Part shown: in pieces, positions 19,405 to 44,941 of the stretch | Position numbering within the stretch: position 1 is the stretch's first letter | Layout of the letters: the number at the start of each line of letters is the position of its first letter | Position numbers and translations under genes: made by a program | Notes under the pieces: generated by a model | Seen by the model: the letters and a program-made list of their open reading frames with translations, nothing else | Databases searched by the model: none | Told to the model about the DNA's origin: nothing | Source: Campylobacterota bacterium | GTDB lineage: Bacteria; Campylobacterota; Campylobacteria; Campylobacterales; Thiovulaceae | Length of the DNA stretch: 64,000 nt | Reading direction: 5' to 3' | Assembly: GCA_030152305.1 (NCBI GenBank) | Contig: JASKOM010000001.1 | Location: forward strand, 265,174 to 329,173

Positions 19405-19414
19405 GAAAAGTTTA

Positions 19415-22906: not shown

Positions 22907-23012
22907 TTCGTAGATTCTAAAACGAGAAGTTATTTGAAACTTGATAATTCATGACTTTATTAATCGTGTTTATCTGATAAAATTATCTAAAGTTTTATTA
23001 AAGGAGTTTTTT

Positions 23013-23920: not shown

Positions 23921-23923
23921 TAG

Positions 23924-24999
23924 ATGAGGTATTTAATGAAATTCAATAAAATAAAAATTGCGGTTATATTTAGTGTATTATCAGCAATTGAATTAAGCGG
24001 TGGAAATTATAATTTAAGTTGTGGCAATGTTCCAGATGATGCTATTGAGGAACTTAATAATTTAATAACAGATGAAAAAACAGCACCAATGGAAATGGTG
24101 TTTTTGGTGTGGATGTTGGTTTTAAAAAAACTGGTGATTTATATATTGGTTTCTTTTCTTTAAATCAAAACAACATAGCTGAATATAAACAACATGTTTT
24201 TAACGGACGAGAAAACAAAGAACCTCATCGTGTTGAATATGCTTTGTCAGATAAATATTCAACAACGGTTGAAAAATATTATTATTCAAAAGATCCGCTT
24301 TCTATTATTGTGTTTGCTAACGATCAAGTTTTTGATGTTCCTGTTGCAAAACTTGGACTAAACAATAAAGATTCAATTTTTGTTCTTGGCAATGAAATAG
24401 CTTTAAAGCTTGATATTGGCGGTAACAATAAAAAAGCACCTGATTATGAAAATTATTTAAATTCAGAAGAAATCAAAACTGCTCAAAATCAAGCAAAAGC
24501 ACGAGCTGATGAAGCCGAAGCAAATGAAAAACGAGAAAAAGCAAAAATTCAAGCTACAAAAATAAGTTCTGGTGGTGGAAAATCAGATGCTGGTTCAGGT
24601 TCAAATAATCATCCAACTGATTACGACACGGTTAAACAGCCAAAAGAAGACGAATATCGAGAAAAAGGAAATAAAAAAGCTGAAAGTGAAGAACAAGAAC
24701 AATCTCCTCAATCTTAAAAACCTGACTGCACAACCCCAATAAATGTGGCTATAAAAAACATTAACGGTAATAAAACTTGTGCTACTACAAAGTGGGAAGA
24801 TTTTAAAAAAGGTTTTAATGATAATTTTGAATTTGATTCGAATAAACAAGCATATAAAGTAAAAAAAGCTGAAGCACTAAGCTCACCTAACTGTAAAAAT
24901 GATGATTATGTGCAATTTTTTGATGGTAGTAAAGGTAGTAAAGGTTGCCAACTTTCAAATGCACAAATTGCTGAAGCTATAAATTTTAGCAAAAAATAA
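23924..24999 (+). pseudogene. disrupted secreted-protein gene (1 frameshift + 1 in-frame TAA)
   Basis: The signal-peptide ORF (23924-) changes frame at the A6 run 24075-24080; an A7 would join it to ...NSTNGNGVFGVDVGFKKTG. An in-frame TAA at 24715-24717 separates 24109-24717 from 24745-24999. The paralog 27078-28703 reads straight through the equivalent point. Confidence 0.65.
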
Positions 25000-25934
25000 T
25001 GAACATATTTATTAAAAAGTTTTTTACACTTAGCATAAGTTTATCAACGATGCTATTTGCTGATTTTTCTGAAGAATCAAATAAAAAAGAACAAGATCAA
25101 GATGTTGAAACTTTGATTAAAGAATATCAAAAATATAAAAATAGTGATGTTCAAGAAGTTCAAGATAATCAAAACGAAAACGAGCCTGTCGAAGAATTGC
25201 CAAAAGCTAAAAAGCCACAAACTAAAACTTCGTCAAATCCAGAAATTCAAGCTCTAAAAGATGAATATACAAAATATAAAAATGCAGTCGAATCTGATAT
25301 TAACATAGTTAAAAATGGTCAAATTAACGAATTGCCTGAATTAAAAAAATTGGCAATAAAACCTGATTTGCAAATTACTATCGATGCAATCGAAGAAGGA
25401 GCTCAAAAAAAAGCTCTTCAATCTGATGCCTATTTATATTTAAAACGATGGTTTTTACTTGCTGATGAGGTCGATAGTGAAGATAAAGAGACTTTATTTT
25501 ATTTAATACTCGATTCTCATTTTAAACAAAACATGGCTGAAGTCGAATCTTTGACAATTAATGAAGATTTTATTTCAGATCAAGAATTCATGGATTTTAT
25601 TAAATTGGGCTATGACGAATATATGGAATATTTAACAATGATCGCGGAAGATTTCGGTGATATCGATGAAAAATATTACAACAAAATAAAATATCGAGTT
25701 ACATCAAAAGGTGGTTTGAGTGTTCAAAAAGATCCATTAACAGGAATTGAACTCAAAAGCAAAAAAGTTATTCCAAATAAAGCAATAGTTTATGTCAAAT
25801 ATTCAACTCGAGGATCTGATAAAAATTTCAAAAATTCATTTAATAAAAAGTTTGCCAAAATCGAATATGAAACCGACGATGAAAAAATAATTGGTTGGGT
25901 TGATTTCAAATCGTTAGTCAAAAAAAACAGATAA
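24999..25934 (+). CDS. secreted protein with possible C-terminal SH3b-like domain
   Basis: 311 aa. Signal peptide MNIFIKKFFTLSISLSTMLFA, an acidic/Q-rich N-terminal region, and C-terminal ...AKIEYETDDEKIIGWVDFKSLVKK. Confidence 0.5.
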   Translation: MNIFIKKFFTLSISLSTMLFADFSEESNKKEQDQDVETLIKEYQKYKNSDVQEVQDNQNENEPVEELPKAKKPQTKTSSNPEIQALKDEYTKYKNAVESDINIVKNGQINELPELKKLAIKPDLQITIDAIEEGAQKKALQSDAYLYLKRWFLLADEVDSEDKETLFYLILDSHFKQNMAEVESLTINEDFISDQEFMDFIKLGYDEYMEYLTMIAEDFGDIDEKYYNKIKYRVTSKGGLSVQKDPLTGIELKSKKVIPNKAIVYVKYSTRGSDKNFKNSFNKKFAKIEYETDDEKIIGWVDFKSLVKKNR

Positions 25935-25970
25935 AACACAAAACAAAAATCCAAAACTAAAAGAATATAA

Positions 25971-27071
25971 ATGATATTAAAAACAAAATCTTTTATATTT
26001 TTCGCTATTTTTTTGACCTCATCGGTATTATTAAATGCCGAAGGTTCTCATTTTATTTTTAATTCTAATGTTGTTGAAAAAAGAAAAACTTTACAACAAG
26101 AATTAAAAATACTCGATGAAAAAGTCGTCAAATTATTTAATCTCGAAAAAGAATTAAATAATAAACAGCTATTAAACAAACATGAAATAAGCGAAAAACA
26201 GGCTGAACAAAAAGAACTTTTGTCTCAAATTAAATTTTACGATATAAAAAAATTATCTATCGATTATCTTAACGAACATATAAACATCGAACTTTTAAAA
26301 TCAAAAAGTTTTGAAAAACAATTAAATAATTTTTCTTTCTACGACACGAAATATAATAATTTATTTAATTTTTATATGAACGAAAATCAAGACGGCATGA
26401 CAAAATGTCTCAAATTCGAAAAATCTTTTAATTTTAAAGTTTCTCAAGATTATCGAGATTTAGAATCAACTAAACAAATAAAAGACACTTTTTTATATTT
26501 TGAAAATTTAATTTATTACACAAATATAAAAATTCGCAAATTAGATCGTGGAGATTATTATGATCGTTATGACGAATTACCTTCGAAAGCTATTTTAAAA
26601 GAATTTGTAAATTATATAAATAGCAAACAAAAAGAATTAATCTCATTTTTATATACTCAATTTTATGAACTTGCCTTTTTAAAACATCGAAATATTTCAT
26701 TTTTATTTGGCTTAAATATTTATTTAAACAGCGATAAAAATTTAATAATCGAATATTACGGCATCGATTCTGAACAAAATTACAAAACTGATCATATTTA
26801 TATTCCCGCTGAATCTATTGGTAAAGATATAAAAAATAATTTAGTCATGAAAACAGTTTATACAGCAAATCGAAAAGAACCTACAAATGTTATTATGACT
26901 TATCAAAATTATGAATATTGGCTTCCTGTAACTCTTTTTGCTAATCATACTTCAGCTCAAATTATCAAAAATGAACTTGATTTTTGGATTTTTAAAAATA
27001 ATATTAGTCCAGCTCGAAGTTTCATTCGAGAGCAATATATACAACTGTTCAAAAATAAAGTCGAGGATTAA
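25971..27071 (+). CDS. secreted protein, unknown function
   Basis: 366 aa with a signal peptide (FIFFAIFLTSSVLLNAEG) and an N-terminal coiled coil. Confidence 0.5.
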   Translation: MILKTKSFIFFAIFLTSSVLLNAEGSHFIFNSNVVEKRKTLQQELKILDEKVVKLFNLEKELNNKQLLNKHEISEKQAEQKELLSQIKFYDIKKLSIDYLNEHINIELLKSKSFEKQLNNFSFYDTKYNNLFNFYMNENQDGMTKCLKFEKSFNFKVSQDYRDLESTKQIKDTFLYFENLIYYTNIKIRKLDRGDYYDRYDELPSKAILKEFVNYINSKQKELISFLYTQFYELAFLKHRNISFLFGLNIYLNSDKNLIIEYYGIDSEQNYKTDHIYIPAESIGKDIKNNLVMKTVYTANRKEPTNVIMTYQNYEYWLPVTLFANHTSAQIIKNELDFWIFKNNISPARSFIREQYIQLFKNKVED

Positions 27072-27077
27072 ACTTTT

Positions 27078-28703
27078 ATGAAAATCATATTTTCGTTTTT
27101 TATATTTATTGGTCTATTATTTAGTGAAGATATTAATCAAAATAAAACAAAATTAAATCAACTCAAAACTAAACGAGATGAAATTCGCGGAAAATTAAGT
27201 CAAATTCCAGGTTTGGAACAAAAAATGAAAGAAATGAAAGCTAAGATCGAAAAGGTTTCAAAAAGTGCTCAAAAAATGCAGGAAATTAAAGCCAGATTAG
27301 ATAAATTAGAACATTCAACATCTTTTGATAATCAACACGAAGAATATATGTTATCAGCTGAAAATTTCAAAGATAGCTTAAAACAACATATTCAAAAAAA
27401 TGCAGTGATTTTTAATGAACTTATGGATAAAAAAGAATCTTTAGAAATGGTTGAACAATATACAAGTGAAGCCGTTGCAATGCTTGAAGATATGATAAAT
27501 AAACCTTATGAAAAAATTGATTATGAACAAGCAAGAAAAGAATCTGAAGCTAAAGCCGAACGATCAAAAAAACAAGCCGAAGCAAAAGCACGAGCTGAAG
27601 CCGAAGAAAATGAAAAACGAGAAAAAGCAAAAATTCAAGCTACAAAAATAGGTTCTGGTGGTGTAAAATCAGATGCTAGTTGTAGTTTGAATCATCCAAC
27701 TGATTATGACACAGTTAAACAACAAAAAGAAGATGAATATCGTGAACAACCAAAAGAAGACGAATATCGAGAAAAAGGAAATAAAGAAGCTGAAAACGAA
27801 GCAAATCAACATTCTTCTCAATCTCCTAATGATTGTAAAGAAACCCCAAAAAATGTGGCTATAAAAAATATTAACGGTAATAAAACTTGTGCTACTACAA
27901 ATTGGAAAAATTTTAAAGAAGGTTTTAATTCTGTTTTTGAATTTGATTCGAATAAACAAGCATATCAAGTAAAAAAAGCTGAAGCACTTTCTTCACCTAA
28001 CTGTCGAAATGGTGATTATGTGCAATTTTTTGATAACAGTAATATTTGCCAACTTTCAAATGAACAAATTAGCGAGGCAATAAATAGTAATTATCGTAGT
28101 TTGAATCATCCAACTGATTACGACACGGTTAAAGCTACAAAAATAGGTTCTGATGGTGAAAAATCAAATGCTGGTTCAAATTCACCAAATTATTCAACTA
28201 ATTACGACACAGTTAAAGCTACAAAAATAGGTTCTGGTGGTGAAAAATCAAATGCTGGTTCAAATTCACCAAATTATTCAACTAATTACGACACAGTTAA
28301 AGCTACAAAAATAGGTTCTGGTGGTGAAAAATCATATGCTGGTTCAAATAATTATTCATATGATTATGACACTGTTAAACAGCCAAAAGAAGACGAATAT
28401 CGCGAACAAGGAAATAAAGAAGCTGAAACATATTCTAACGATTGTAAAGAATTCCCAAGAAAAATTGCAATCAAACATCTTGACGGTGAGAAATGTGCAA
28501 CTGTTGTTACAAAACTATCTTTTCAAGAAAATTTCAATCTTGATTTCGAAGCTGTTCGTGGAAAACAAAGAACATATCGAGTCAAAAATCAACAAACAGA
28601 TTGTAAAGTCGGTGAGCAAATTCAATTTTTTGATGCTAACAAAGATTGCCAACTTTCAAATGATCAAATAGCTGAAATTATAAATTTTAGCAAAAATAAA
28701 TAA
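27078..28703 (+). CDS. secreted modular repeat protein
   Basis: 541 aa: signal peptide, coiled coil, a charged AKARAEAEENEKREKAK segment, NHPTDYDTVK motifs, two copies of a ~80-aa Cys-containing module (...KTCATTNWKNFKEGFN...CQLSNEQISEAIN), and three 28-aa tandem repeats. Confidence 0.6.
   Translation: MKIIFSFFIFIGLLFSEDINQNKTKLNQLKTKRDEIRGKLSQIPGLEQKMKEMKAKIEKVSKSAQKMQEIKARLDKLEHSTSFDNQHEEYMLSAENFKDSLKQHIQKNAVIFNELMDKKESLEMVEQYTSEAVAMLEDMINKPYEKIDYEQARKESEAKAERSKKQAEAKARAEAEENEKREKAKIQATKIGSGGVKSDASCSLNHPTDYDTVKQQKEDEYREQPKEDEYREKGNKEAENEANQHSSQSPNDCKETPKNVAIKNINGNKTCATTNWKNFKEGFNSVFEFDSNKQAYQVKKAEALSSPNCRNGDYVQFFDNSNICQLSNEQISEAINSNYRSLNHPTDYDTVKATKIGSDGEKSNAGSNSPNYSTNYDTVKATKIGSGGEKSNAGSNSPNYSTNYDTVKATKIGSGGEKSYAGSNNYSYDYDTVKQPKEDEYREQGNKEAETYSNDCKEFPRKIAIKHLDGEKCATVVTKLSFQENFNLDFEAVRGKQRTYRVKNQQTDCKVGEQIQFFDANKDCQLSNDQIAEIINFSKNK
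28134..28379 (+). repeat. 84-nt tandem coding repeat, about 3 units
   Basis: Units start at 28134, 28218 and 28302 and encode ATKIGSGGEKSNAGSNSPNYSTNYDTVK. The first two units are near-identical at the DNA level. Confidence 0.9.
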
Positions 28704-28783
28704 CTAACACAATTCACGACTTTATCGATAATTTATTTTTTTCGATGAGGTCCGTTTCTTCGAAACAAAATAAAATAATTAAA

Positions 28784-29701
28784 ATGGAACATAAATATAT
28801 GGGTGATCAAGCAACGGTTTTCTTAAATCAAACATCAGCAACAAACAGATCTAATAATCAATCAAATCAGTCAAATAAATTTTTCAATAAGTATCTCAAA
28901 GCTTTTCTATTTATTATATTAATAATTATTGCTAGTTCAATAACTTATTATTACGATTATCAATCAGCAAAAACTAAAGAACAGGAACAAAAAAAAGAAT
29001 CTGAACTTGAATCAGAAAAGTTAAAAAAAATCGAAGCTGAAAAATTGCAAAAATACGAATTAGAGTTAAAAAGAATCGAAGCCGAAGAATTACAAAAAGC
29101 TGAACTCGAACGACAAAGAATCGAAGCTGAAAAATTACAAAAAGCTGAACTTGAACAACAACGACTCGATGCTGAAAAATTACAACAATACGAATTAGAG
29201 TTAAAAAGAATGGAAGCCGAAGATTTTCAAAAAGCTCAACTCGAGAAACAAAGAATCGAAGCTGAAAAATTACAAAAAGCTGAACTCGAACGACAACGAA
29301 TCGAAGCTGAAAAATTAAAAAAAGCTAAACTTGAAAAACAACGAATCGAAGCTGAAAAAACCACACAACCTAAACCATCAAATAAAAATGGCATTGTTGT
29401 AATTAACGATTTAATGTTTCAAGATCAACAATTGCCAAATCAAATGAGTTGGACTGAAGCAGTAAGTTATTGCAAAAATCTAACATTTAAAGGTTATTCC
29501 GATTGGAAATTACCAGATCTTGAAGATTTAACAATTGCTTTTCAAAATAAGTCAAAATTCAAAAACTTACAACAAAGTTGGTATTGGAGCAGAACAAATC
29601 ACGATAATTTTGGTGCGAAATTCATAGATTTTCACAGCGGATTAACCGATTGGGATGTTCAAACAGCAAACGGTTTTGCTTTTTGCTCAAGAGATTTGTG
29701 A
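28784..29701 (+). CDS. membrane-anchored coiled-coil repeat protein with C-terminal DUF1566 (Lcl-C-like) domain
   Basis: One TM segment (FLFIILIIIASSITYYY), repeats of the AEKLQKAELERQRIE type, and C-terminal MSWTEAVSYCKNL...YSDWKLPDLEDL...WYWSRT. The start is uncertain. The ORF-track ATG at 28745 lies inside a GATGAGGT motif. Confidence 0.6.
   Translation: MEHKYMGDQATVFLNQTSATNRSNNQSNQSNKFFNKYLKAFLFIILIIIASSITYYYDYQSAKTKEQEQKKESELESEKLKKIEAEKLQKYELELKRIEAEELQKAELERQRIEAEKLQKAELEQQRLDAEKLQQYELELKRMEAEDFQKAQLEKQRIEAEKLQKAELERQRIEAEKLKKAKLEKQRIEAEKTTQPKPSNKNGIVVINDLMFQDQQLPNQMSWTEAVSYCKNLTFKGYSDWKLPDLEDLTIAFQNKSKFKNLQQSWYWSRTNHDNFGAKFIDFHSGLTDWDVQTANGFAFCSRDL
29040..29358 (+). repeat. 45-nt periodic coding repeat (IEAEKLQKAELERQR heptad-like units)
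   Basis: About 7 diverged units of ATCGAAGCTGAAAAATTACAAAAAGCTGAACTCGAACGACAAAGA. Confidence 0.8.
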
Positions 29702-29764: not shown

Positions 29765-29825
29765 TAATTAAAAATTTTGCTACAATTCAAATCAAAAAAT
29801 CTTAAATTATTTGTTTTAAATTTAT

Positions 29826-29946
29826 TTCAACAAGGCTTACCAGTGCCTAAGATTCAATCTTTCATACCTTCTTGCTTATCTTGAAGGTATTCTGATACAA
29901 GCCTTTTTGAAGTAAATTTTGAAGAGATTGAATCTGAAACTGGTAA
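29826..29946 (+). ncRNA. candidate structured leader / c4-like element upstream of P3
   Basis: TTACCAGT (29837-29844) / ACTGGTAA (29939-29946), copy-specific AGATTCAATCTTTC (29850-29863) / GAAGAGATTGAATCT (29921-29935), and a copy-specific inner hairpin ATACCTTC (29864-29871) / GAAGGTAT (29883-29890). Confidence 0.45.
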
Positions 29947-30005
29947 CTTCTTAGCAACTCTTCAGCCAAAAAATTTATTTTAATTCTATAATTTACCAAG
30001 TAAAA

Positions 30006-30917
30006 ATGACAGAAATCGTTCAAATTGTGCCTCAAAAAATTGGGGACGAGAATTCTCAAGTTGTGTCAGCGAGAGATTTACATAAATTCTTAGGTGTCAA
30101 AAGACAATTTGCAAACTGGATAAAAGATCAAGTGAGACGAGGTCGCTTTAAAGAGAATATCGATTATATCGTTACTCAAGAGGTTGTTAACATTAATGTT
30201 AACAACCTCAATTTAGGTGGAAGACCTTCAATTGAATATTTCTTAACTCTTGAAACTGCTAAACATGTATCTTTAATGAGTGAGACAGAAAAAGGTTATG
30301 AAGTTCGAAACTATTTTATTCGGATTGAAAAAGAGTATTTCAATTTAAAAGCTCAAGAGTTTGCTAATCAAGAATTAGAAAAATATAAACAATCTCAATC
30401 GCAAAGTCAAAATCCAAAACTTGAGTTAATCAAAGTTCGTGGAAATGGAAAAATTATTCGAAGATCTTTCACGGATGTAGTTAAAGATTTTATCGTTAAT
30501 GCAAAATCGCAAGGTAGTCAAAATGCTGATCGTTATTATTTAATTTTCACGATTGAAATTTATCGAAAACTTGGCTTGATAAAAACGAATAAAGATTTTG
30601 GCAAATTAAAAAATGCTATTTCTGAAATCAAATTGAATGAAGGCGATCTTAAACAATTAGATAAGCAATTTAACTTTCGAGATGAATTAGATGTTGAAAA
30701 CTTAACCGTTGTTAGTTCGTGTGAAATTATTGTTCAGCGAATTATCGAAACTGAAATGACAAAACAGACACCTTACAAACAAATTTTTCAAATTGCAAAA
30801 GCTCAACTTGCAACAATTTCAATCGCTTTTGAACCTTATATCGCAACTGCAAAACAGCAACTTGAATTTAAAAATACACTTTTTGAGTTTTTATTACTTG
30901 AAAATAAAGAATCTTAG
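30006..30917 (+). CDS. AntA-type + P63C-like protein (P3)
   Basis: 303 aa. Closest to P1: same FANWIKDQ and EYFLTLETAKHVSLMSETEKGYEVRNYFIRIEKEY, and the same ...ENKES end. Confidence 0.7.
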   Translation: MTEIVQIVPQKIGDENSQVVSARDLHKFLGVKRQFANWIKDQVRRGRFKENIDYIVTQEVVNINVNNLNLGGRPSIEYFLTLETAKHVSLMSETEKGYEVRNYFIRIEKEYFNLKAQEFANQELEKYKQSQSQSQNPKLELIKVRGNGKIIRRSFTDVVKDFIVNAKSQGSQNADRYYLIFTIEIYRKLGLIKTNKDFGKLKNAISEIKLNEGDLKQLDKQFNFRDELDVENLTVVSSCEIIVQRIIETEMTKQTPYKQIFQIAKAQLATISIAFEPYIATAKQQLEFKNTLFEFLLLENKES

Positions 30918-30966: not shown

Positions 30967-31027
30967 TAATTAAAAATTTTGCTACAATTCAAATCAAAAA
31001 ATTTTAAATTATTTGTTTTAAGTTTAT

Positions 31028-31148
31028 TTCAACAAGGCTTACCAAGTGCCTGTAACATAGCTCACAAGCTTTCTAGTCATTTGACTTGAAAGCCTTTTTG
31101 AAGTAAATTTTGAAGAGCCATGTTACGAAACTTGGTAACTTTCTAGCA
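31028..31148 (+). ncRNA. candidate structured leader / c4-like element upstream of P4
   Basis: TTACCAAGT (31039-31047) / ACTTGGTAA (31140-31148), plus the copy-specific GTAACATAGCTC (31052-31063) / GAGCCATGTTAC (31125-31136) with one A/C mismatch. Confidence 0.45.
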
Positions 31149-31198
31149 ACTCTTCAGCAAAAAAATTTATTTTAATTCAATAATTTACCAAGTAAAAA

Positions 31199-32116
31199 AT
31201 GATGGAAATCGTGAAAATATTGCCTCAAAAAATTGGGGAAGAGAATTCTCAAGCTGTTTCAGCGAGAGATTTACATAAGTTTTTAGGTGTAAAAAAGAAG
31301 TTTGCAGACTGGATCAAAGATCAATTTGAGAGAGGTCGTTTCGAAGAAAATATCGACTATTCCACTGTTCCCCTAAAAGGGAAGAGTGAAAAAGTAACAC
31401 TTTTTGATAATGGTTTATACCGTAACCAACACGGTCAAGTTGTAACTGTTGATTATTTTTTAACAGTTGAGACAGCTAAATTAATTGCTTTTATTAGCGA
31501 AACTGAAAAAGGTCACGAAATAAAAAAGTATTTTCTCAAAGTTGAACGAGAATATTGGGAATTAAAAATTCAGGAAGCCGTTGAGCAAGATCGAAAAAAT
31601 CACAATCCAAAACTTGAGTTAATCAAAGTTCGCGGAAATGGAAAAATTATTCGAAGATCTTTCACGGATACAGTTAAAGATTTTATCGTTTATGCAAAAT
31701 CGCAAGGTAGTCAAAATGCTGATCGTTATTATTTAATTTTCACGATTGAGATTTATAGAAAACTTGGCTTAATAAAAACGAATAAAGATTTTGGCAAATT
31801 AAAAAATGCGATTTCTGAAATAAAACTAAATGATGAAGATCTTAAAAAACTAGATAAACAATTTAACTTTCGAGATGAATTAGATGTTGAAAACTTAACA
31901 GTTGTTAGTTCATGTGAAATTATTGTTCAGCGAATTATCGAAGATGAAATGTCAAAACAAACTCACTACAAAACAATTTTTCAAATTGCAAAAGCTCAAC
32001 TTTCAACAATTCAAATCGCATTCGAGCCTTATATCGCAACTGCAAAACAGCAACTTGAATTTAAAGGGACTTTGTTTGAGTTTTTATTACTTGAAAATAA
32101 TCCTGTTGTGAATTAA
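31199..32116 (+). CDS. AntA-type + P63C-like protein (P4)
   Basis: 305 aa. C-terminal two-thirds are near-identical to P2 (...ENNPVVN end). The segment between ENIDY and DYFLT is unique. Confidence 0.7.
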   Translation: MMEIVKILPQKIGEENSQAVSARDLHKFLGVKKKFADWIKDQFERGRFEENIDYSTVPLKGKSEKVTLFDNGLYRNQHGQVVTVDYFLTVETAKLIAFISETEKGHEIKKYFLKVEREYWELKIQEAVEQDRKNHNPKLELIKVRGNGKIIRRSFTDTVKDFIVYAKSQGSQNADRYYLIFTIEIYRKLGLIKTNKDFGKLKNAISEIKLNDEDLKKLDKQFNFRDELDVENLTVVSSCEIIVQRIIEDEMSKQTHYKTIFQIAKAQLSTIQIAFEPYIATAKQQLEFKGTLFEFLLLENNPVVN

Positions 32117-37865: not shown

Positions 37866-37911
37866 TAAATAATAAAATAAACAAATCTTCCAAACTAAAA
37901 TATAAAAAATA

Positions 37912-37948
37912 ACCTCATCGAATAAATAAAAAATATTCTCGATGAGGT
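37912..37948. terminator. bidirectional intrinsic terminator built from an inverted ACCTCATCG/CGATGAGGT pair
   Basis: ACCTCATCG-N19-CGATGAGGT flanked by A-runs and T-runs on both sides, between convergent groEL (+) and R4 (-). Confidence 0.6.
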
Positions 37949-37956
37949 TTTGCTTT

Positions 37957-38712
37957 TTACAAAACAGCTTTAATCTTCCACTTTAATTGACTAAACTTAC
38001 CATTTATCTCAATTCCAAAATCACGACCAGATTTTGTTAATTTCCAAACACCATTTTCACGAATTTGAAAACCTTTATGTTCGAGCATCAAATTAATCTC
38101 GACCGCTGATTTGTTGATCATTTTGCCTAATTCAGTTGGTAAGAAAAATTGATTTTCGAGATCAATCTCAAAATGTTCAAGCGGTGAAAAGTTATGAAAC
38201 TTGCGATAAAACTTATCGAGTCGGTAAAGAGTTGTTGGATTCATATTTTGTAAATTTGCAATTAACTTTTCGGTTGCCGTTAAATTATTATCAAGTTCAA
38301 TAATTTTTTCAGTTTCATTTCCAATTTCTGGAAGTTGTAGGTTTTGAGTTTGCGATTTCTTATTTTGCAAAAGTTCTCGCATTCGAAAGAATTCGCTAAC
38401 TAATCGAACTTTGAAATCTAAAACAATGTCGTTATTTCTCATCATCGAAATTAGTAAAGTTGCTTGTGCTTCGTTTAAATAGAAAGTTTTTTGTTCAACT
38501 TGCCCTCTATCTTTACCATTTTTTGTTGTTCTATCTAAACCCTCATTTTTAAAATGAATGTTTCCAAAAAACTCGAATTTATCGATGTGTTTGTTGATCA
38601 TGTTTGCGATTGAAACAGCTAAGTTTTCTGTTTTTTCTGCGATAACTCGATGAGAAATTCGAGGTTCGTTGTCGATGAGTTCGACGATATTTGTGTTAAA
38701 ATTTGAGTCCAT
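37957..38712 (-). CDS. Rha-type + KilAC-type protein (R4)
   Basis: 251 aa. IVELIDNEPRISHRVIAEKTENLAVSIANMINKHIDKFEFF... The C-terminal ~130 aa are near-identical to R1, R2 and B3. Confidence 0.75.
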   Translation of the reverse strand: MDSNFNTNIVELIDNEPRISHRVIAEKTENLAVSIANMINKHIDKFEFFGNIHFKNEGLDRTTKNGKDRGQVEQKTFYLNEAQATLLISMMRNNDIVLDFKVRLVSEFFRMRELLQNKKSQTQNLQLPEIGNETEKIIELDNNLTATEKLIANLQNMNPTTLYRLDKFYRKFHNFSPLEHFEIDLENQFFLPTELGKMINKSAVEINLMLEHKGFQIRENGVWKLTKSGRDFGIEINGKFSQLKWKIKAVL

Positions 38713-38828
38713 TTTTTATCTTTCGTAAAAAATTAAAGTTCAAGATGGAAGAGTTCCAAAAATCCGTCTTGACTGGACAATTATACTATTTTAAAATATC
38801 ATTTTCAATTTTAAGCATATAAAAATAT

Positions 38829-39083
38829 TTATCTTGTTTGAATTGCGATTAACTGACTCATGCTATTTTTAAAATTTTTAAACTCTTGCTCTTTTAGTAA
38901 TAAATTTAATGTTGTTTCAACTAAAAGTGAAATTGGTGTTTTATTATTTGCCCAATCAGAAACAGTATTTTTATTGACCCCTATTCTTTCCGCCAATTCT
39001 TTTTGAGTTATGCCCAATTCACGGCAGGTTTTTTTAACTAAGTTTTCTTGTTTGTCTTGTTCGGTTTTTTCAATTTTACTCAC
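38829..39083 (-). CDS. XRE/Cro-type HTH protein (H4)
   Basis: A GTG start at 39081-39083 follows AAAGGA and gives MSKIEKTEQDKQENLVKKTCRELGITQKELAERIGVNKNTVSDWANN... The ORF-track ATG at 39140 lies inside the last codons (KWKIKTII*) of the upstream gene. Confidence 0.7.
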   Translation of the reverse strand: MSKIEKTEQDKQENLVKKTCRELGITQKELAERIGVNKNTVSDWANNKTPISLLVETTLNLLLKEQEFKNFKNSMSQLIAIQTR

Positions 39084-39115
39084 GAATAAATCCTTTTGAT
39101 TTTCCGTAATTTTAA

Positions 39116-39874
39116 TTAAATTATCGTTTTTATCTTCCATTTTATTTGACTAAACTTACCAACGATCTCAATTCCAAATTCATTCCCCGATTTTGTTAAT
39201 TTCCAAACACCATTTTCACGAATTTGAAAACCTTTATGTTCGAGCATCAAATTAATCTCGACGGGACTTTTGTTAATCATTTTGCCTAATTCAGTTGGAA
39301 GGAAAAATTGCGAATCGAGATTAATCTCAAAATGTTCAAGCGGTGAAAAGTTATGAAACTTGCGATAAAACTTATCGAGTCGGTAAAGAGTTGTTGGCTT
39401 TTTTGATTCGAGGATTTCAATTAAATTTGAAGTTTCGAGAACATCGTTTTTTAATTCGATCATTTTGTCAGTTTCATTTCCAATTTCTGGAAGTTGTAGG
39501 TTTTGAGTTTGTGGCTGTTGAATTGAATAATTTCCAGTTTTGCGAATTGACGGAAGAACTTCACCAGCGATCCATTTTTGAAAAGGTAAAGCTTTCGGTT
39601 TATCTGAACGACCTATAAAAAAATATAATCCTTGTTCTGATAAAACAAGCATATTTCGGGTTATATTATTCATACGAATCGGTTTCGTATGAACCCATTC
39701 GTTAGGCACATTAGCAATTAAATTGCTATCAAATCGTTGATATTCTAAAGCAGTTGCAACATCTTTTGCGACAAACCAAATTGTCTCATTTGCAAAAATT
39801 GTCCTGATTTGATTACGATCTTCGAATAAAAATTGCGATTCAGAAGAGTTTTCTGATAAAATAGAGGAAGTCAT
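39116..39874 (-). CDS. Bro-N domain + KilAC-type protein (B3)
   Basis: 252 aa. IRTIFANETIWFVAKDVATALEY...LSEQGLYFFIGRSDKPKALPFQKWIAGEVLPSIRKTG is Bro-N. From QTQNLQLPEIGNET onward it is near-identical to the Rha-type paralogs. Confidence 0.8.
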   Translation of the reverse strand: MTSSILSENSSESQFLFEDRNQIRTIFANETIWFVAKDVATALEYQRFDSNLIANVPNEWVHTKPIRMNNITRNMLVLSEQGLYFFIGRSDKPKALPFQKWIAGEVLPSIRKTGNYSIQQPQTQNLQLPEIGNETDKMIELKNDVLETSNLIEILESKKPTTLYRLDKFYRKFHNFSPLEHFEINLDSQFFLPTELGKMINKSPVEINLMLEHKGFQIRENGVWKLTKSGNEFGIEIVGKFSQIKWKIKTII

Positions 39875-39946
39875 TTTGACCTTTAAAAATAAAATGATTA
39901 AGAAAGAAATATTTGCTGTGGTAGGTTGAATTTTCTTTCTGTTTTA

Positions 39947-40216
39947 TTATAATTGATTTAAAATCAAATTGTCAAGTTTATTTCTAAAATTTATTAATTC
40001 TGATTCAATATTTGACATTCTATTAATTTTTAATAATGCTTGAAATAATGTTTCTACTGTTTTAGGTATTTTTTGACCATTGCTCCATCGTGATAAAGCT
40101 TCTTGACTTACCCCTATTCGTTCCGCCAATTCCTTTTGAGTAATGCCTAATTCACGGCAGGTTTTTTTAACTAAGTTTTCTTGTTTGTCTTGTTCGGTTT
40201 TTTCAATTTTACTCAC
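39947..40216 (-). CDS. XRE/Cro-type HTH protein (H3)
   Basis: A GTG start at 40214-40216 follows AAAGGA and gives MSKIEKTEQDKQENLVKKTCRELGITQKELAERIGVSQEALSRWSNG... The ORF-track model (to 40366) reads through a palindromic repeat element. Confidence 0.7.
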   Translation of the reverse strand: MSKIEKTEQDKQENLVKKTCRELGITQKELAERIGVSQEALSRWSNGQKIPKTVETLFQALLKINRMSNIESELINFRNKLDNLILNQL

Positions 40217-40255
40217 GAATAAATCCTTTTGATTTTCCGTAATTTTAATATTTTT

Positions 40256-40332
40256 GGATTCTGAAACAAGTTGCAGGATGACAAGTTTTTTGTCATCCCG
40301 AAGCGATAGCTCCTGTAACTTGTTTCTGGATC
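40256..40332 (+). repeat. palindromic repeat element E10: inverted partner + long variant (MITE-like composite)
   Basis: GGATTCTGAAACAAGTTGCAGGATGAC (40256-40282), the spacer AAGTTTTTT, and GTCATCCCGAAGCGATAGCTCCTGTAACTTGTTTCTGGATC (40292-40332). AATTTTAAT is present on both sides. Confidence 0.75.
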
Positions 40333-40341
40333 TAATTTTAA

Positions 40342-41070
40342 TTAAATTATCGTTTTCATCTTCCACTTCAATTGACTAAACTTACCAACGATCTCAATTC
40401 CAAAATCACGACCAGATTTTGTTAATTTCCAAACACCATTTTCACGAATTTGAAAACCTTTATGTTCGAGCATCAAATTAATCTCGACCGCTGATTTGTT
40501 GATCATTTTGCCTAATTCAGTTGGTAAGAAAAATTGATTTTCGAGATCAATCTCAAAATGTTCAAGCGGTGAAAAGTTATGAAACTTGCGATAAAACTTA
40601 TCGAGTCGGTAAAGAGTTGTTGGATTCATATTTTGTAAATTTGCAATTAACTTTTCGGTTGCCGTTAAATTATTATCAAGTTCAATAATTTTTTCAGTTA
40701 AGTTTCCAATTTCTGGAAGTTGAAAGTTTTTAGTTTGCGATTTTTGATTTTGTAAGATTTCTCGCATTCGAAAGAATTCGCTAACTAAACGGACTTTAAA
40801 ATCTAAAACGATGTCGTTATTTCTCATCATCGAAATTAGTAAAGTTGCTTGTTGCTCGTTTAAATAGAAAGTTTTTTGTTCGTTAGTCCGATTTTTCGAG
40901 TTTTTAATAGCCTCCGTTTTAAACGGAACCATTCCAAAATGTTCGATTTTACTGATTAGTTCAACGACATTTTTTTGTTGAATTTCTGTTTGTTCTGCGA
41001 TAACTCGATGAGAAATTCGCGGTTCATTTTCGATGAGTTCGACGATATTTGTGTTAAAATTTGACTGCAT
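40342..41070 (-). CDS. Rha-type + KilAC-type protein (R2)
   Basis: 242 aa. The N-terminal Rha segment has a distinct middle (AEQTEIQQKNVVELISKIEHFGMVPFKTEAIKNSKNRTNEQ). The C-terminal half is near-identical to R1 and R4. Confidence 0.75.
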   Translation of the reverse strand: MQSNFNTNIVELIENEPRISHRVIAEQTEIQQKNVVELISKIEHFGMVPFKTEAIKNSKNRTNEQKTFYLNEQQATLLISMMRNNDIVLDFKVRLVSEFFRMREILQNQKSQTKNFQLPEIGNLTEKIIELDNNLTATEKLIANLQNMNPTTLYRLDKFYRKFHNFSPLEHFEIDLENQFFLPTELGKMINKSAVEINLMLEHKGFQIRENGVWKLTKSGRDFGIEIVGKFSQLKWKMKTII

Positions 41071-41072
41071 GT

Positions 41073-41151
41073 ATCTCCAATTATTTGACTAAAATAGAAA
41101 TTGCCGTTTCTAAGATAGTTGGAGATAATTATATAGAATATATTCTATATA
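41073..41151 (-). promoter_or_regulatory. candidate operator + promoter + RBS-sequestering 5'UTR hairpin of R2
   Basis: Perfect 22-bp palindrome TATATAGAATATATTCTATATA (41130-41151) overlaps a TATAAT. In the transcript, ATCTCCAA (41126-41119) can pair with TTGGAGAT (41080-41073), which contains the GGAG 2 nt before the ATG. Confidence 0.45.
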
Positions 41152-41161
41152 ATCAAGAATA

Positions 41162-41404
41162 TCATCTATTTAAAATAGCTATAGTTTTTTTTAAAATTTC
41201 TAATTCTTCTTCTTTTTTCAAAAGTTCGATTGTTCTATAAAAACTTTTCGGAGGTTTTAATTTATTATTCGCCCAATTTGTAATCGCTCTTTCACTTACC
41301 CCAATTCGTTCCGCCAATTCCTTTTGAGTTATGCCCAATTCTCGGCATGTTTTTTTAACTAAGTTTTCTTGTTTGTCTTTTTCGGTTTTTTCGACTTCGC
41401 TCAA
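41162..41404 (-). CDS. XRE/Cro-type HTH protein (H2)
   Basis: 80 aa with a TTG start after AAAGGA. MSEVEKTEKDKQENLVKKTCRELGITQKELAERIGVSERAITNWANN... Confidence 0.75.
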   Translation of the reverse strand: MSEVEKTEKDKQENLVKKTCRELGITQKELAERIGVSERAITNWANNKLKPPKSFYRTIELLKKEEELEILKKTIAILNR

Positions 41405-41463
41405 GTTTAGTCCTTTTTTGAATTAATTTGTTTTTCCGCAATTTTAATATTTTTGGATTGATC

Positions 41464-41530
41464 GTCATCCCGAATTGATTTATAGATCTAATTAATTTGA
41501 AACAAGACCCTGAAATCAATTCATTGAGAC
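41464..41530 (+). repeat. palindromic repeat element E11 (degenerate) plus an inverted partner
   Basis: GTCATCCCGAATTGATTTATAGATC (41464-41488), then TAATTAATTTGAAACAA, then GACCCTGAAATCAATTCATTGAGAC (41506-41530). Confidence 0.65.
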
Positions 41531-41538
41531 GAAAAAAT

Positions 41539-42297
41539 TTACAAAACAGCTTTCATCTTCCACTTTAATTGACTAAACTTACCGTTTATCTCAATTCCAA
41601 ATTCATTCCCAGATTTTGTTAATTTCCAAACACCATTTTCTCTAATTTGAAAACCTTTATGTTCGAGCATCAAATTAATCTCGACGGGACTTTTGTTAAT
41701 CATTTTGCCTAATTCAGTTGGTAAGAAAAATTGCGAATCGAGATCAATCTCAAAATGTTCAAGCGGTGAAAAGTTATGAAATTTGCGATAAAACTTATCG
41801 AGTCGGTAAAGAGTTGTCGGATTCATATTTTGTAAATTTGCAATTAACTTTTCGGTTGCCGTTAAATTATTGTCAAGTTCGATTATTTTTTCAGTTGAGT
41901 TTCCAATTTCTGGAAGTTGTAGGTTTTGAGTTTGCGATTTCTGATTTTGCAAAAGTTCTCGCATTCGAAAGAATTCGCTAACTAAACGGACTTTAAAATC
42001 TAAAACGATGTCGTTATTTCTCATCATCGAAATTAGTAAAGTTGCTTGTTGCTCGTTTAAATAGAAAGTTTTTTGTTCAACTTGCCCTCTATCTTTACCA
42101 TTTTTTGTTGTTCTATCTAAACCCTCATTTTTAAAATGAATGTTTCCAAAAAACTCGAACTTATCGATATTTTTGTTGATTAAATTTGCGATTGAAACAG
42201 CTAAGTTTTCTGTTTTTTCAGCGATAACTCGATGAGAAATTCGCGGTTCGTTGTCGATGAGTTCTATTAAGAATTCGGTAAAATTCTTTTCGTTCAT
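41539..42297 (-). CDS. Rha-type + KilAC-type protein (R1)
   Basis: 252 aa. The Rha segment is almost identical to R4. Confidence 0.75.
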   Translation of the reverse strand: MNEKNFTEFLIELIDNEPRISHRVIAEKTENLAVSIANLINKNIDKFEFFGNIHFKNEGLDRTTKNGKDRGQVEQKTFYLNEQQATLLISMMRNNDIVLDFKVRLVSEFFRMRELLQNQKSQTQNLQLPEIGNSTEKIIELDNNLTATEKLIANLQNMNPTTLYRLDKFYRKFHNFSPLEHFEIDLDSQFFLPTELGKMINKSPVEINLMLEHKGFQIRENGVWKLTKSGNEFGIEINGKFSQLKWKMKAVL

Positions 42298-42409
42298 TTA
42301 ATTTTGCTCCAGATATTTTTCTAAAATAGAAATGCCAGTTTCTAAAATAGTTGGGGCAAATTTTAGCATATTTTTCTATTATATGGCTACTTAAATCTAC
42401 TATTTTCTA

Positions 42410-42667
42410 TTAAATATATTTTTGAACTTCTTGAATAGAATTTTTTAGATTTTGAAAACTTGTTGTCTTATTTAAACTTTCTACTAATAAATTAATATGA
42501 TTAATAATATTTTTAGGAATATTATTACTTGTTGCATATTTTGATAATGTTCGATCAGTTAAGCCTATTCTTTCTGCCAACTCTTTTTGAGTTATGCCCA
42601 ATTCTCGGCATGTTTTTTTAACTAAGTTTTCTTGTTTGTCTTTTTCGGTAATTTTGACCTCATCCAT
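42410..42667 (-). CDS. XRE/Cro-type HTH protein (H1)
   Basis: The ATG at 42665-42667 lies 10 nt after GGAG and gives MDEVKITEKDKQENLVKKTCRELGITQKELAERIGLTDRTLSKYATS... The ORF-track TTG at 42682 contains that RBS. Confidence 0.75.
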   Translation of the reverse strand: MDEVKITEKDKQENLVKKTCRELGITQKELAERIGLTDRTLSKYATSNNIPKNIINHINLLVESLNKTTSFQNLKNSIQEVQKYI

Positions 42668-42720
42668 TTTTATTATCTCCAATTCCCAATTTTTTGTAAT
42701 TTTAATATTTTTTGCTTTTT

Positions 42721-42745
42721 GTCATCCCGAATTTATTTCGGGATC
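42721..42745 (+). repeat. palindromic repeat element, copy E12
   Basis: GTCATCCCGAATTTATTTCGGGATC, identical to the E4 core. Confidence 0.85.
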
Positions 42746-42754
42746 TAAATTTAT

Positions 42755-43076
42755 TTAATTATATTTACCTAATTCAGTTGGTAAATATAGTTCACGACCA
42801 ATTCTATTTTGAAGTTTTTGAGCGATGAGTATTTATTGCTGTCGTAAATGTATTTCTCAAGTCCATAAAGATTAAATAGATTAATCTTGAAGCTTCAAGA
42901 AAAAGATCTATTAGTTTAAGAATTTTTTGTGTTAAGTTGTCAGTTGCTGGAATGAGCAGTTGTGATTTTTGATTTTCTATAATAATATCTATTTTTCTAG
43001 CTAAATATAAATCTGATGTTCTGACATCAACACTAACACTTCCATTTAAAAGTGCCTCTTCTGTTTGTCCTATCAT
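42755..43076 (-). pseudogene. decayed remnant of a sixth KilAC-type cassette gene
   Basis: Homology to the paralogs is spread over three frames: ENQKSQLLIPATDNLTQKILKLID (cf NQKSQTQNLQLPEIGNETEKIIELD), LYGLEKYIYDSNKYSSLKNFKIEL (cf LYRLDKFYRKFHNFSPLEHFEIDL), and LYLPTELGKYN* (cf FFLPTELGKMINKS). Confidence 0.6.
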
Positions 43077-43222
43077 TTTTTATGACCTTTTTATAAAATT
43101 TTATTCCTCTATCTTTTTCGATGAGGTAATGAAATTTTAAAATAGTTTATTGCCATAAAAATATTTTTATTTCAATCGTTATTCCGTGTTATGATATGGA
43201 ATCAAATAATTAAAATTGGAAT

Positions 43223-44941
43223 TTGAAAATGAATAAATTAATTCTTGGCGATAATTTAGATTCGTTGAAAAAATTAGAAAGTGAATCGGTTGATCTTATA
43301 TATTTAGATCCGCCGTTTTTCTCGAATCGAAGTTATGAAGTCATTTGGGGCGACAAAGGTGAAATTCGAAGTTTTGAAGATCGCTGGAGTGGTGGAATGG
43401 ATCATTATATTAGCTGGTTAAAAGATCGTGTTGAACAAATGCACAGAGTTCTGAAGCCGACAGGCTCGATATTTCTTCATTGTGATTATCATGCAAATGC
43501 ACATATTCGTGTTTTTATTCTCGATAAAATTTTTGGTGAAGATAATTTCAGAAATGATATTACATGGCAAAGAACAAATAATCCAAAAGGTTCTCAATAT
43601 AAAAAAAAGAATTTAGGAATAGCAACAGATACTATTTTTTGGTATTCAAAATCAAACAAATATTTTTTCGATGATACTAGAATAAGAACTGAACTTGAAG
43701 CGGAATTAGTGGCTGATAAATATCCAAAAATTGACGAATATGGTAGATATTATGAATATCCTATATTAAGATCCGCTTCTAAAGGAGCAAGACCAAACCT
43801 TGTTTATGAATATAAAGGTTTTACTCCACCTTTTTATGGTTGGGTTGTTAGCAAAGAAAAACTAATTGAAATTGACTTACGAGGTGATTTAGGTTGGAGA
43901 AAAAATGGTCAACCTTTTAGAAAGTTTAGACCTCATGAAGATCCAGGCAAATTAGTTAATAACATGTGGGACGATATTTTACGAATTCAATCAAACTCCA
44001 AAGAAGCAATCGGCTATCCAACTCAAAAACCAGAAGCTCTTCTTGAACGAATAATTAAAATGGCAAGTAATTAAAATGATGTTGTTCTTGATCCTTTTGT
44101 TGGCGGTGGAACAACTGTTTCAGTTGCAAATAAATTAAATCGCAAATGGATCGGAATCGATCAATCTCCAATGGCTATTAAAGTTTCTGAATTGCGACTC
44201 GAACGAAATAAAAATTTGTTTTCTGAACCGTTTATCGTGCAATTGCATAAATATGATTTCGACTTTTTGCGAAATTCGGATGCTTTTCAGTTTGAAAGTT
44301 TTATCGTCGAACAATTCGGCGGAATTCCAAATGTCAAACAGCGAGGCGATTCAGGAATTGATGGCAAAACTCGAGACGGATTAGCAATTCAAGTCAAACG
44401 ATCAGATAATATTGGCAGAAATGTCGTTGATAATTTTTTATCAGCAATCAATCGTTTTGACAAAAAATTATTCGAAACTCAAAAAACTAATAAATCTGAA
44501 GTCGGCTATATTATCGCTTTCTCATTTGGCAAAGGTGCAATCGGCGAAGTTGCAAGATTAAAACATGAAGAAAATATAAATATAAAATTAGTGCGAGTCG
44601 ATGAAATCGTTCCAATGGCAACAAAACCAAAATTAAATTTAATAATTTCAGAAAAAAATATTGGCGAAATTGATTCAAAAGGGAATCGAGAATTTATATT
44701 AAAAGCAAAAGCCGAATCGGAATCTGGAATTGAATTTTTTGCTTGGAATTTTAATTATGATGAAAATTTAGGTTTTCAAGCTGAAATTATGATCGATAAA
44801 ACAGGCGAACAGAATTATAAATTTGGAATCGGTGAACACAAAATAGCTGTAAAAGCAATTGACAACGACGGACTTGAGTCAATCGAAATCGTCAAATTAA
44901 AAATCAATGGCAAAATCGAAATAATTTCAACTTCGAAATAA
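43223..44941 (+). pseudogene. beta-class N6A/N4C DNA methyltransferase fused to an Mrr-like nuclease domain and a PKD/Ig-like tail, interrupted by one in-frame TAA
   Basis: Motif IV is DLIYLDPPFFSN (ORF 43223-44074). A TAA lies at 44072-44074. Motif I, VLDPFVGGGTT, is in the same frame at 44084-44116 between the two ORF-track models. Downstream are GDSGIDGKTRDGLAIQVKRS (restriction-endonuclease-like) and FFAWNFNYDE...KAIDNDGLESIEIVKLKING. Confidence 0.7.

Follow-up and report, generated by a model that had tools for sequence, protein, structure and literature searches.

The immI region of phage P22 is organized as mnt / arc-ant and that of phages P1 and P7 as c4 antisense RNA-icd-ant with kilA nearby; in each of them an Ant-class gene is kept off by a small dedicated regulator alongside, and heteroimmune variants differ in the regulator-target pair. 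Domain-shuffled Bro-N/KilA-N regulators, and the bro multigene families of baculoviruses and large DNA viruses, were reportedly described by Iyer and co-workers in 2002. Overexpression of P1 KilA is lethal to the host, and ant is under dedicated control. Makarova et al. (2009) listed an Xre protein together with an antirepressor (Bro-N + Ant/KilA-C) as a toxin-antitoxin (TA)-like pair found in phage genomes and not in bacterial ones, some Ant-domain proteins being toxic. BstA, an abortive-infection protein of the KilA-N type, has a cognate DNA element (Owen et al. 2021). Here, we analyzed 64,000 nucleotides (nt) of a Campylobacterota bacterium of the family Thiovulaceae (contig JASKOM010000001.1, positions 265,174 to 329,173; the whole stretch is called the window), in which two-gene cassettes form a tandem array. 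Each cassette consists of a small Xre/Cro-type helix-turn-helix (HTH) gene (H) and a gene of ~250 amino acids (aa) related to phage antirepressors (R). Our results suggest, with a probability that we put at roughly 0.5, that each cassette is a stand-alone chromosomal copy of the temperate-phage pair of a Cro-like Xre repressor and an antirepressor/KilA-class protein, orthogonal to its neighbours and with a role in genetic conflict.

Open reading frame (ORF) listing and alignment placed four complete H-R cassettes and one decayed relic on the minus strand at 37957-43076, with H, a spacer carrying a TATAAT promoter and a palindrome, and R in this order. In the direction of transcription the array begins with R0, a decayed and truncated R gene (~42731-43025): tblastn with R1, R2 and R5 against 42683-43230 gave matches at E ~1e-4 in two fragments, which keep the linker/coiled-coil region and the LPTELGK motif, split over two frames. 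The relic stops at this motif, and a hairpin like those of repetitive extragenic palindromic (REP) elements marks its end. H1 (42410-42682; Pfam HTH_3 E=4e-7; recognition-helix region LTDRTLSKYATS) probably starts at ATG 42667, giving 85 aa in translation. The H1-R1 spacer (42298-42409) contains the -10 elements TATAAT and TGcTAAAAT, two copies of the direct repeat CTATTTTAGAAA and the inverted repeat TAGAAA-N6-TTTCTA, and leads into R1 (41539-42297; 252 aa), which has a Rha N-domain (Pfam Phage_pRha E=2e-10), a helical linker and a KilAC-like C-domain. Cassette 2 comprises H2 (41162-41404; 80 aa; Pfam HTH_3; recognition-helix region VSERAITNWANN) and R2 (40342-41070; 242 aa), a variant Rha N-domain (Phage_pRha E=2.4e-13) with a KilAC-like C-domain. 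Cassette 3 comprises H3 (39947-40216; 89 aa from GTG 40216; Pfam HTH_3; recognition-helix region VSQEALSRWSNG) and B3 (39116-39874; 252 aa), in which a Bro-N N-domain (Pfam E=6e-21) precedes the KilAC-like C-domain and which matches the PHROG anti-repressor Ant over residues 11-234 (E=6e-36). Cassette 4 comprises H4 (38829-39083; 84 aa from GTG 39083; Pfam HTH_3; recognition-helix region VNKNTVSDWANN) and R4 (37957-38712; 251 aa; Rha + KilAC-like, by Pfam and alignment). At the end of the array, between R4 and the convergent groEL, lies an inverted repeat (37901-37959) that is likely a two-way terminator. The long N-terminal ORF extensions of H3 (ORF to 40366) and H4 were rejected as non-coding, since they represent the upstream gene's 3' end read in another frame; that of H3 additionally contains a repeat element read out of frame.

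A second locus on the same strand holds H5 (20275-20499), R5 (Rha + KilAC-like; 19415-20167) and the orphan H6 (19060-19272). An earlier reading made without database searches (the sequence-only reading) had given the order H1-R1-H2-R2-H3-B3-H4-R4 with four complete cassettes, a decayed fifth large gene, and H5-R5 with an orphan HTH gene at 19060-20499, all of which our data bear out. It had also predicted four Pfam families: HTH_3 (H1-H6), Phage_pRha (R1, R2, R4 and R5) and Bro-N (B3) were indeed found above the gathering score, whereas ANT/KilAC was not matched by the window proteins. PHROGs labels for the large proteins were anti-repressor or Rha-like regulators.

The H proteins combine an invariant start with a variable remainder. 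H1-H4 are identical up to ...KQENLVKKTCRELGITQKELAERIG / ...QENLVKKTCRELGITQKELAERIG and divergent beyond in the alignment, and the invariant surface stretch of H proteins includes ENLVKKTCRELGITQKELAE. Helix 3 is the recognition helix in Xre/Cro-type domains (HTH_3 fold). In an AlphaFold model of H2 (predicted local distance difference test, pLDDT, 83) the helices span residues 15-23, 27-34, 38-45, 53-63 and 65-79; since helix 3 is thus placed at 38-45, the divergence begins at the recognition helix, where the sequence-only reading had also put the break. Over the 28 conserved codons of the four adjacent genes, synonymous divergence (dS) was 0.36-0.92 and the ratio of non-synonymous to synonymous divergence (dN/dS) 0.00-0.09. 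In the remainder of the gene dN/dS was 0.43-1.75, values that are saturated and come from sequence hard to align, and positive selection is not claimed. Judged from these rates, strong purifying selection acts on helices 1-2 of H, whereas the recognition helix and tail are free to diverge. As the conserved part has a dS of 0.36-0.92, its conservation reflects selection at the protein level and not recent copying, so that the swapped specificity segments on shared scaffolds proposed in the sequence-only reading are ruled out for H.

A conserved DNA or recombination site behind the H motif was likewise rejected: no 20-mer is shared between species and the codons differ, which argues for protein-level selection on the motif. 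The identical N-terminal peptide is encoded, with many synonymous DNA differences, by 29 H genes of four lineages, which represent 20 distinct loci as L023-L025 repeat L022 (such numbers denote our loci outside the window). It is also present in most Thiovulum sp. ES members of the published pangenome table and in a word-indexed homolog search, the sample of which is biased towards the motif. A second H subfamily, to which H5 and H6 are assigned, has its own conserved N-terminus, FDLKAELKA[LI]GMTQKDFA, and is found also in Ca. T. stygium (L002 9642-9893). A fold search with the H model gave Xre-type matches only, all non-significant.

We then considered the DNA between the genes. An exact TATAAT is present in five of five H-to-R spacers, against an estimated chance expectation of ~0.17 per spacer, and the strongest sigma-70-like sites of the region sit within or at the edge of spacers, three of them with strong -35/-10 elements (all on the minus strand). 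The B3 promoter, TTGACA-18-TATAAT (39946-39975; 12/12 match), overlaps the end of H3. The R4 promoter, TTGAAA-17-TATAAT (38780-38808; 11/12), holds the palindrome TATTTTAAAATA (38787-38798) inside its spacer. The R2 promoter, TTGATT-17-TATAAT (41128-41156; 10/12), is overlapped by a perfect 26-bp palindrome (ATTATATAGAATA/TATTCTATATAAT, 41128-41153) that occurs once in the window and is a candidate H2 operator. A metagenome contig (L027) carries an H2 ortholog, 91% identical, downstream of a chemotaxis-receptor gene and outside any array. At this locus the recognition helix is retained, as is the palindrome apart from one mismatch, and an R2-like start comes next; the upstream terminator is a different one, and the remainder of the spacer has diverged. 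Recognition helix and palindrome therefore stay paired while the genomic context changes. The suggestion in the sequence-only reading that every spacer has its own TATAAT and a distinct hairpin or palindrome is borne out, a separate promoter and a separate palindrome going with each R; a long perfect palindrome is confined to cassette 2.

The region upstream of H is of another kind. A conserved AAAAATATTAAAATTAC box and a REP-like hairpin stand upstream of each H, and a segment related to this upstream region precedes the H genes of Ca. T. imperiosus, as seen in translated upstream frames. The hairpin TTAGATCCCGAAATAAATTCGGGATGAC lies just upstream of the H1 promoter region (42721-42748, minus strand) and variants lie before H2 (~41464-41491) and H3 (~40255-40335) on the same strand, all coordinates being estimated from motif positions. 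The motif TTCGGGATGA, with at most one mismatch, has 19 sites in the window where 3.4 are expected. Sites of the element are at 5943, 7031, 19339, 20552, 30943, 40293, 41465 and 42722, plus variants; it is genome-wide, found after many genes and before each H, with those at 5943 and 7031 away from cassettes. The element also has a longer variant bearing an insert. Given the conserved box and hairpin before each H and the distinct spacer elements before R, the promoter appears to be common to the H genes but private to each R.

In the R proteins, different N-domains are joined to one type of C-domain. R1 shares 92% identity with R4, R2 shares 82-85% with both, and R5 is 70-72% identical to R1, R2 and R4; B3 resembles the others in the C-terminal ~130 aa only. 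An AlphaFold model of R1 (pLDDT 85.7) shows a winged-helix-like domain at the N-terminus, then long helices and, at the C-terminus, a small domain of helix plus strand. Pfam ANT/KilAC (PF03374) gave no match in the window C-domains even at E<=10, and the Thiovulum sp. ES homolog matched Pfam ANT at E=0.0019, below the cut-off. A C-domain profile search of 1.84 billion proteins retrieved 1521 proteins; among the distant hits, 22 of 68 carry Pfam ANT/KilAC, and the N-domains of such hits are Bro-N, AntA, Rha, KilA-N, P22_AR_N or ORF6N. In BFVD, the R1 model had full-length matches to phage antirepressor, KilAC domain and KilA proteins (E 1e-8 to 1e-4), and COG3645 KilAC labels are present in the published pangenome table. 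Since distant profile hits carry ANT and the structure matches KilAC/KilA proteins, the R C-domain is probably a divergent KilAC/ANT domain. The KilAC-type C-terminus first read from the sequence has support from remote profile and structure homology, though not from a Pfam match in the window proteins.

Both halves of R are under purifying selection (dN/dS 0.2-0.6). The dS between R2 and R4 falls from 0.43 for the N half to 0.076 for the C half, and B3 has a non-homologous Bro-N N-domain on the common C half (dS ~0.29). This uneven dS along R, together with the N-domain swap onto one C-domain, indicates that cassettes recombine at the linker, and the identity values, dS contrast and Bro-N match agree with the mosaic of R genes, with R1 close to R4, that had been noticed at the outset. 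The exchangeable N-domains are Rha or Bro-N in the window array and KilA-N or AntA elsewhere in the genome or genus. As a separate observation, the Rha domains of metagenome proteins P0101, P0109 and P0112, which share 49-57% identity with the R1 N-domain, are joined to HNH nuclease domains, and this sequence relationship suggests that the Rha module may also serve as the targeting domain of homing-type nucleases.

Thiovulum is a giant sulfur bacterium whose cell is probably polyploid. Named homologs of the proteins were from Thiovulum sp. ES, and in a scan of one genome per species Ca. Thiovulum stygium and Ca. T. imperiosus were the only ones with the subfamily. The H-to-R unit, single or arrayed and flanked by housekeeping genes, occurs in three other Thiovulum lineages: Ca. 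T. stygium has five units in L001 (some broken) and three in L002, and the unit is also found in Ca. T. imperiosus at L005, L010 and other loci, and at L022 in an organism from a JGI metagenome. Arrays are present at L001, L002, L005, L010 and L022. The comparison across related genomes that had been proposed as a check thus found the unit recurring in varying number. For 25 of 32 H genes an R gene follows within 400 nt on the same strand, the N-domain of the partner being Rha in 9, Bro-N in 9 and KilA-N in 7. Among the best 120 R1 homologs, ~52 are on contigs assumed from their lengths to form one assembly with the window. In the published four-genome Thiovulum pangenome, H is GC_00000001, with 106 genes in 4 genomes and up to 34 per genome (Bizic et al. 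2022, PMC9938260), and R is GC_00000002, with 101 genes in 4 genomes and up to 29 per genome (Supplementary dataset 7, PMC9938260). A bacterial genus thus owes its two largest gene families to Xre and antirepressor, a pair deemed a phage part, the largest clusters of that pangenome being these two; the main text of Bizic et al. (2022; PMC9938260) makes no mention of antirepressor, Rha or paralogs.

These data also bear on the alternative that the family has been domesticated, with phage-derived DNA-binding proteins regulating Thiovulum genes and H as paired co-regulator. The family is core in four genomes, in which it forms the largest gene clusters, R is under purifying selection, the cassettes lie among housekeeping genes and both R domains are predicted DNA-binding folds. 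There is a precedent, as KilA-N gave rise to the fungal APSES factors. Such a role is opposed by the many truncated or frameshifted copies and relics across at least four Thiovulum lineages, which indicate birth-and-death turnover of the family, and by the genomic positions of cassettes, which differ between species. In addition, C-domains group by genome and not by orthologous locus (mean identity 68% within a genome, at most 57% between species), and this within-genome likeness, as far as the sequences go, indicates concerted evolution or repeated within-genome shuffling. A dedicated private regulator for each R is, moreover, typical of selfish or conflict modules. We regard domestication as unlikely, and favour the reading of the cassettes as phage-type repressor and antirepressor pairs in genetic conflict.

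The closest described counterpart under that favoured reading is the phage cro-ant pair, in which a small Xre HTH gene is likewise upstream of and co-directional with a two-domain Ant-class protein, N-domains of the same types (Rha, Bro-N, KilA-N or AntA) are used, and the C-domain is, in Thiovulum probably, of KilAC type. In contrast to that pair, the Thiovulum cassettes have no phage, CI repressor partner or integrase, occur in tens of copies per genome, tandem or single, among housekeeping genes, give each R its own promoter, and have a C-domain too divergent for Pfam ANT. No phage or prophage immunity-region setting beside a CI-type repressor was found among the ORFs of at least 100 aa in the 64 kb, and the other loci are flanked by housekeeping genes. 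The cassettes share with the immI regions of P22 and P1/P7 the small dedicated regulator and the variation of the regulator-target pair, but their regulators are Xre HTH proteins and not Arc/Mnt, and Thiovulum is not known to have a target repressor for anti-repression. BstA and its DNA element aba offer a further parallel, as BstA is a two-domain protein with a KilA-N-type DNA-binding N-domain that acts in phage conflict, each variant being matched to a short cognate DNA element located where its own gene begins; BstA is not accompanied by an HTH gene and resides in prophages, whereas the window array has Rha and Bro-N N-domains, and PADLOC gave no BstA hit for R1 or B3. Viral bro families are also multi-copy in one genome with shuffled N- and C-modules, but they are viral and without paired repressors, while in Thiovulum the family has expanded on a bacterial chromosome and in pairs with H. 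A likeness in logic only is offered by Xre-type antitoxins and by the controller (C) proteins of restriction-modification (R-M) systems, in which a small upstream Xre HTH protein acts at a palindromic operator in the downstream promoter to control a potentially harmful gene; the downstream gene in Thiovulum is not a nuclease or known toxin. What is new is the copy number, the detachment from phages, the chromosomal tandem arrays and the apparent orthogonality. The sequence-only reading, which knew of no described system of this organization, therefore overlooked that the two-gene unit is the phage cro-ant arrangement and was listed as a TA-like pair (Makarova et al. 2009); its idea of a host-retained battery of switches keeps its ground in the phage-type domains without a prophage, the private promoters and the variable recognition helices.

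In the mechanism that we propose from the arrangement of genes and sites, H would be made from the conserved promoter, bind the private palindrome over the promoter of its own R and keep R off; if each H binds its own palindrome in this way, the cassettes would be mutually orthogonal. R would be the effector and, by analogy with P1 KilA, BstA and phage antirepressors, may bind DNA or a repressor once control by H fails. The arrays would have grown via tandem duplication and recombination through the conserved 3' half of R. The role of the cassettes would most likely lie in genetic conflict, as interference with phages or other elements along with addiction-like behaviour of the cassette, given the analogies with P1 KilA and BstA and the R-M, TA and helicase neighbours of some arrays. 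If the cassettes do act against phages, they would add a new kind of content to defence islands. The dozens of related, putative HTH-operator pairs offer a natural set for the diversification of DNA-binding specificity, and the cassettes a tractable route to the function of KilAC/Rha/Bro-class proteins.

Several findings weigh against this reading. Taken as a class, promoter-like matches are about as frequent in this AT-rich DNA as in shuffles of it (26 against 25), the long perfect palindrome is found in cassette 2 only, and candidate operators were assigned by position and symmetry alone. Simple operator binding does not account for the invariance of H helices 1-2. R has DNA-binding-type domains only, with no recognisable toxin or enzyme domain, and PADLOC gave no convincing defence match (a sub-threshold, non-BstA hit for R1 and none for B3). 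The R-M, TA and helicase neighbourhood comes from a few loci and is not a statistic, and the figure of ~52 paralogs hinges on the assumed common assembly of those contigs. About half of the R-type genes in other loci are without a co-directional H. Next to these R genes stands a small ORF in divergent orientation, which belongs to either of two conserved kinds, neither with a significant Pfam hit. Type 1 carries ...KKKGINTLTTLVNILLAEYIEKNRELL... (L001 11990-12175, L003 9694-9861, L007 9682-9861 and L017 9230-9412), and type 2 starts MNY... and is weakly HTH-like (L004 1739-1960, L014 9194-9415 and L015 9200-9406). A by-eye call of the small divergent ORFs as ribbon-helix-helix (RHH) proteins was dropped as unsupported by Pfam.

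Were the cassettes pure addiction modules, R would act as a toxin of Kil type, with H as antidote at the transcriptional and/or protein level, and the cassettes would maintain and spread themselves selfishly, with no anti-phage role. The TA-like listing by Makarova et al., the toxicity of some Ant-domain proteins and the killing of the host by overexpressed P1 KilA fit this idea, as do the antitoxin-like HTH-first order, weak matches of H to the MqsA, YdaS and Xre antitoxin families, and the PemK TA pair (L022) and an RHH-like ORF called by eye (L001) beside arrays. R, however, has its own promoter and does not form a tight operon with H, no known toxic fold of type II TA systems was found in R, and many R genes have no adjacent H of this family. 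Addiction alone seems quite unlikely to us. A mobile-element role, in which the cassettes would supply regulation or targeting to a small element, for instance a homing-type or REP-associated one, and copy themselves round the chromosome, is very improbable: the H2-type cassette in a different genomic context in another organism, the REP-like hairpins flanking cassettes, the HNH fusions of Rha relatives and the T5orf172 gene beside a KilA-N gene (5428-6998) could be cited for it, but the window cassettes neither contain nor adjoin a nuclease, transposase or recombinase, the REP element is genome-wide and not cassette-specific, and no target-site duplications were seen. That the array is inert debris, a pile of immunity-region remnants of decayed prophages, has scarcely any credit with us: although its domains are typical of such regions and the relic copy and broken R-M neighbour show local decay, the selection on and conservation of the cassettes speak against it, as four have intact ORFs and promoters under strong purifying selection, the unit is kept across four lineages, no other phage gene was found among the scanned ORFs of the 64 kb, and adjacent copies are paralogs with C halves 80-99% identical, pointing to local duplication and not to independent prophage insertions.

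Beyond the H-R cassettes the window contains five further Ant-like genes, four of AntA type and one of KilA-N type. The four AntA-domain paralogs (~300 aa; 20822-21754, 22028-22906, 30006-30917 and 31199-32116, plus strand) are 77-86% identical and belong to a set of eleven, all apparently of the source genome. Their C-terminal half is unlike the KilAC-like one, and the proteins vary in a single segment, an insert within the AntA domain. A metagenome scan with the AntA alignment, using N-terminal patterns, found no relatives. A leader of ~125 nt precedes every intact AntA-domain gene seen, in the window (20647-20773, 21856-21980, 29822-29959 and 31024-31151, plus strand) and in Ca. T. imperiosus (L009 9109-9224 and L010 15605-15721, both minus strand). 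The leaders fold far better than shuffled sequence (z -3.7 to -5.6). Their 17-bp outer stem is 97% paired over the six copies, with compensatory changes at four pairs, and its invariant U·G pairs indicate an RNA on the sense strand. A 12-bp pseudoknot-type stem joins the loop of this hairpin to the downstream leader; its sequence is wholly different between copies yet complementary in each, with both-side changes at 11 of 12 pairs, and self pairing (-11.7 to -19.9 kcal/mol) is stronger than non-self pairing (-1.1 to -11.6 kcal/mol). As a predicted alternative, the 3' arm can base-pair to a UUACC box immediately ahead of the start codon. RNAalifold on the raw MAFFT alignment misaligned the arms and missed the variable stem, and single-sequence folds with explicit pair counts were used instead.

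Rfam had no family at gathering score in the window and only generic hairpin (miRNA-precursor) matches at E<=10; the leader does not match the Rfam C4 covariance model, and a covariance model of the leader itself finds the six copies only in the DNA at hand. The upstream RNA with copy-specific complementary arms recalls the c4/target logic of P1/P7, but there is no sequence or Rfam match to c4 here. By this analogy, the leader may be a c4-like, copy-specific riboregulator. It is a candidate new regulatory RNA with paralog-specific pairing, and it strengthens the theme of a private, copy-specific regulator for each Ant-class gene. A wider version of the favoured reading would take 50-100 orthogonal switches, each a private regulator with an Ant/KilA-class protein, as a combinatorial chromosomal system for sensing and interfering with phages or other invading DNA, orthogonality coming from diversified HTH/operators and from the RNA leader with copy-specific arms; as a new class of defence or conflict system, made of parts from phage immunity, this is a tentative and rather doubtful proposition. 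Between the two AntA pairs lie six consecutive ORFs (22941-29701, plus strand), of which five have no Pfam or PHROG match and the sixth (28745-29701) has an Lcl_C/DUF1566 domain. At the KilA-N locus, a T5orf172/GIY-YIG-like ORF (5428-5832, plus strand; marginal Pfam match) is followed by a 303-aa KilA-N protein (6087-6998, plus strand) with a third kind of C-terminal region, the gene being bracketed by REP elements.

With regard to the wider setting, the window ORFs of at least 100 aa judged to be real genes, ORFs nested in or overlapping longer ones being omitted, included no member of an integrase, terminase, capsid, tail or lysis family, in line with the earlier impression that such genes are missing from the 64 kb. 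The window is ordinary Thiovulum chromosome, with argH, ruvX, leuS, purL, guaB, pglB, ftsA and ftsZ by Pfam families and groEL, which was omitted from the family scan and named from its sequence. A plasmid DNA search gave no match, and an IMG/VR pattern scan with the R alignment found no relatives. Phage proteins are at most ~34% identical, in the arrangement immunity repressor / HTH ... antirepressor (Gordonia phage Holliday). The R-M-type gene said to border the array is an N6/N4 methylase fused to an Mrr-like nuclease (43223-44941, plus strand), split by a single in-frame TAA (44072-44074) with the S-adenosylmethionine motif DPFVGGGTT inside the apparent gap; its ortholog in Ca. T. stygium is intact (565 aa; L003 7694-9391) and also stands beside an R-family gene. 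R-M, TA and helicase genes adjoin some arrays. The co-occurrence with defence genes that had been put forward as a check is thus seen in the adjoining R-M gene, but not in PADLOC.

Some further neighbours were noted. The L022 metagenome contig has a 1557-aa DEAD/UvrD-type helicase gene between cassettes (8844-13517) and the PemK toxin pair after them (16114-16624), and in the sister sample L023 the same helicase gene is broken into two. Caspase-like genes, called by eye, and DUF1566-like genes stand just upstream of cassettes at several loci in two species (L001 6147-8067, L015 6574-8775, L017 7623-8918 and L007 8567-8989). The window also contains a cluster of four tRNA genes (8260-8649, plus strand).

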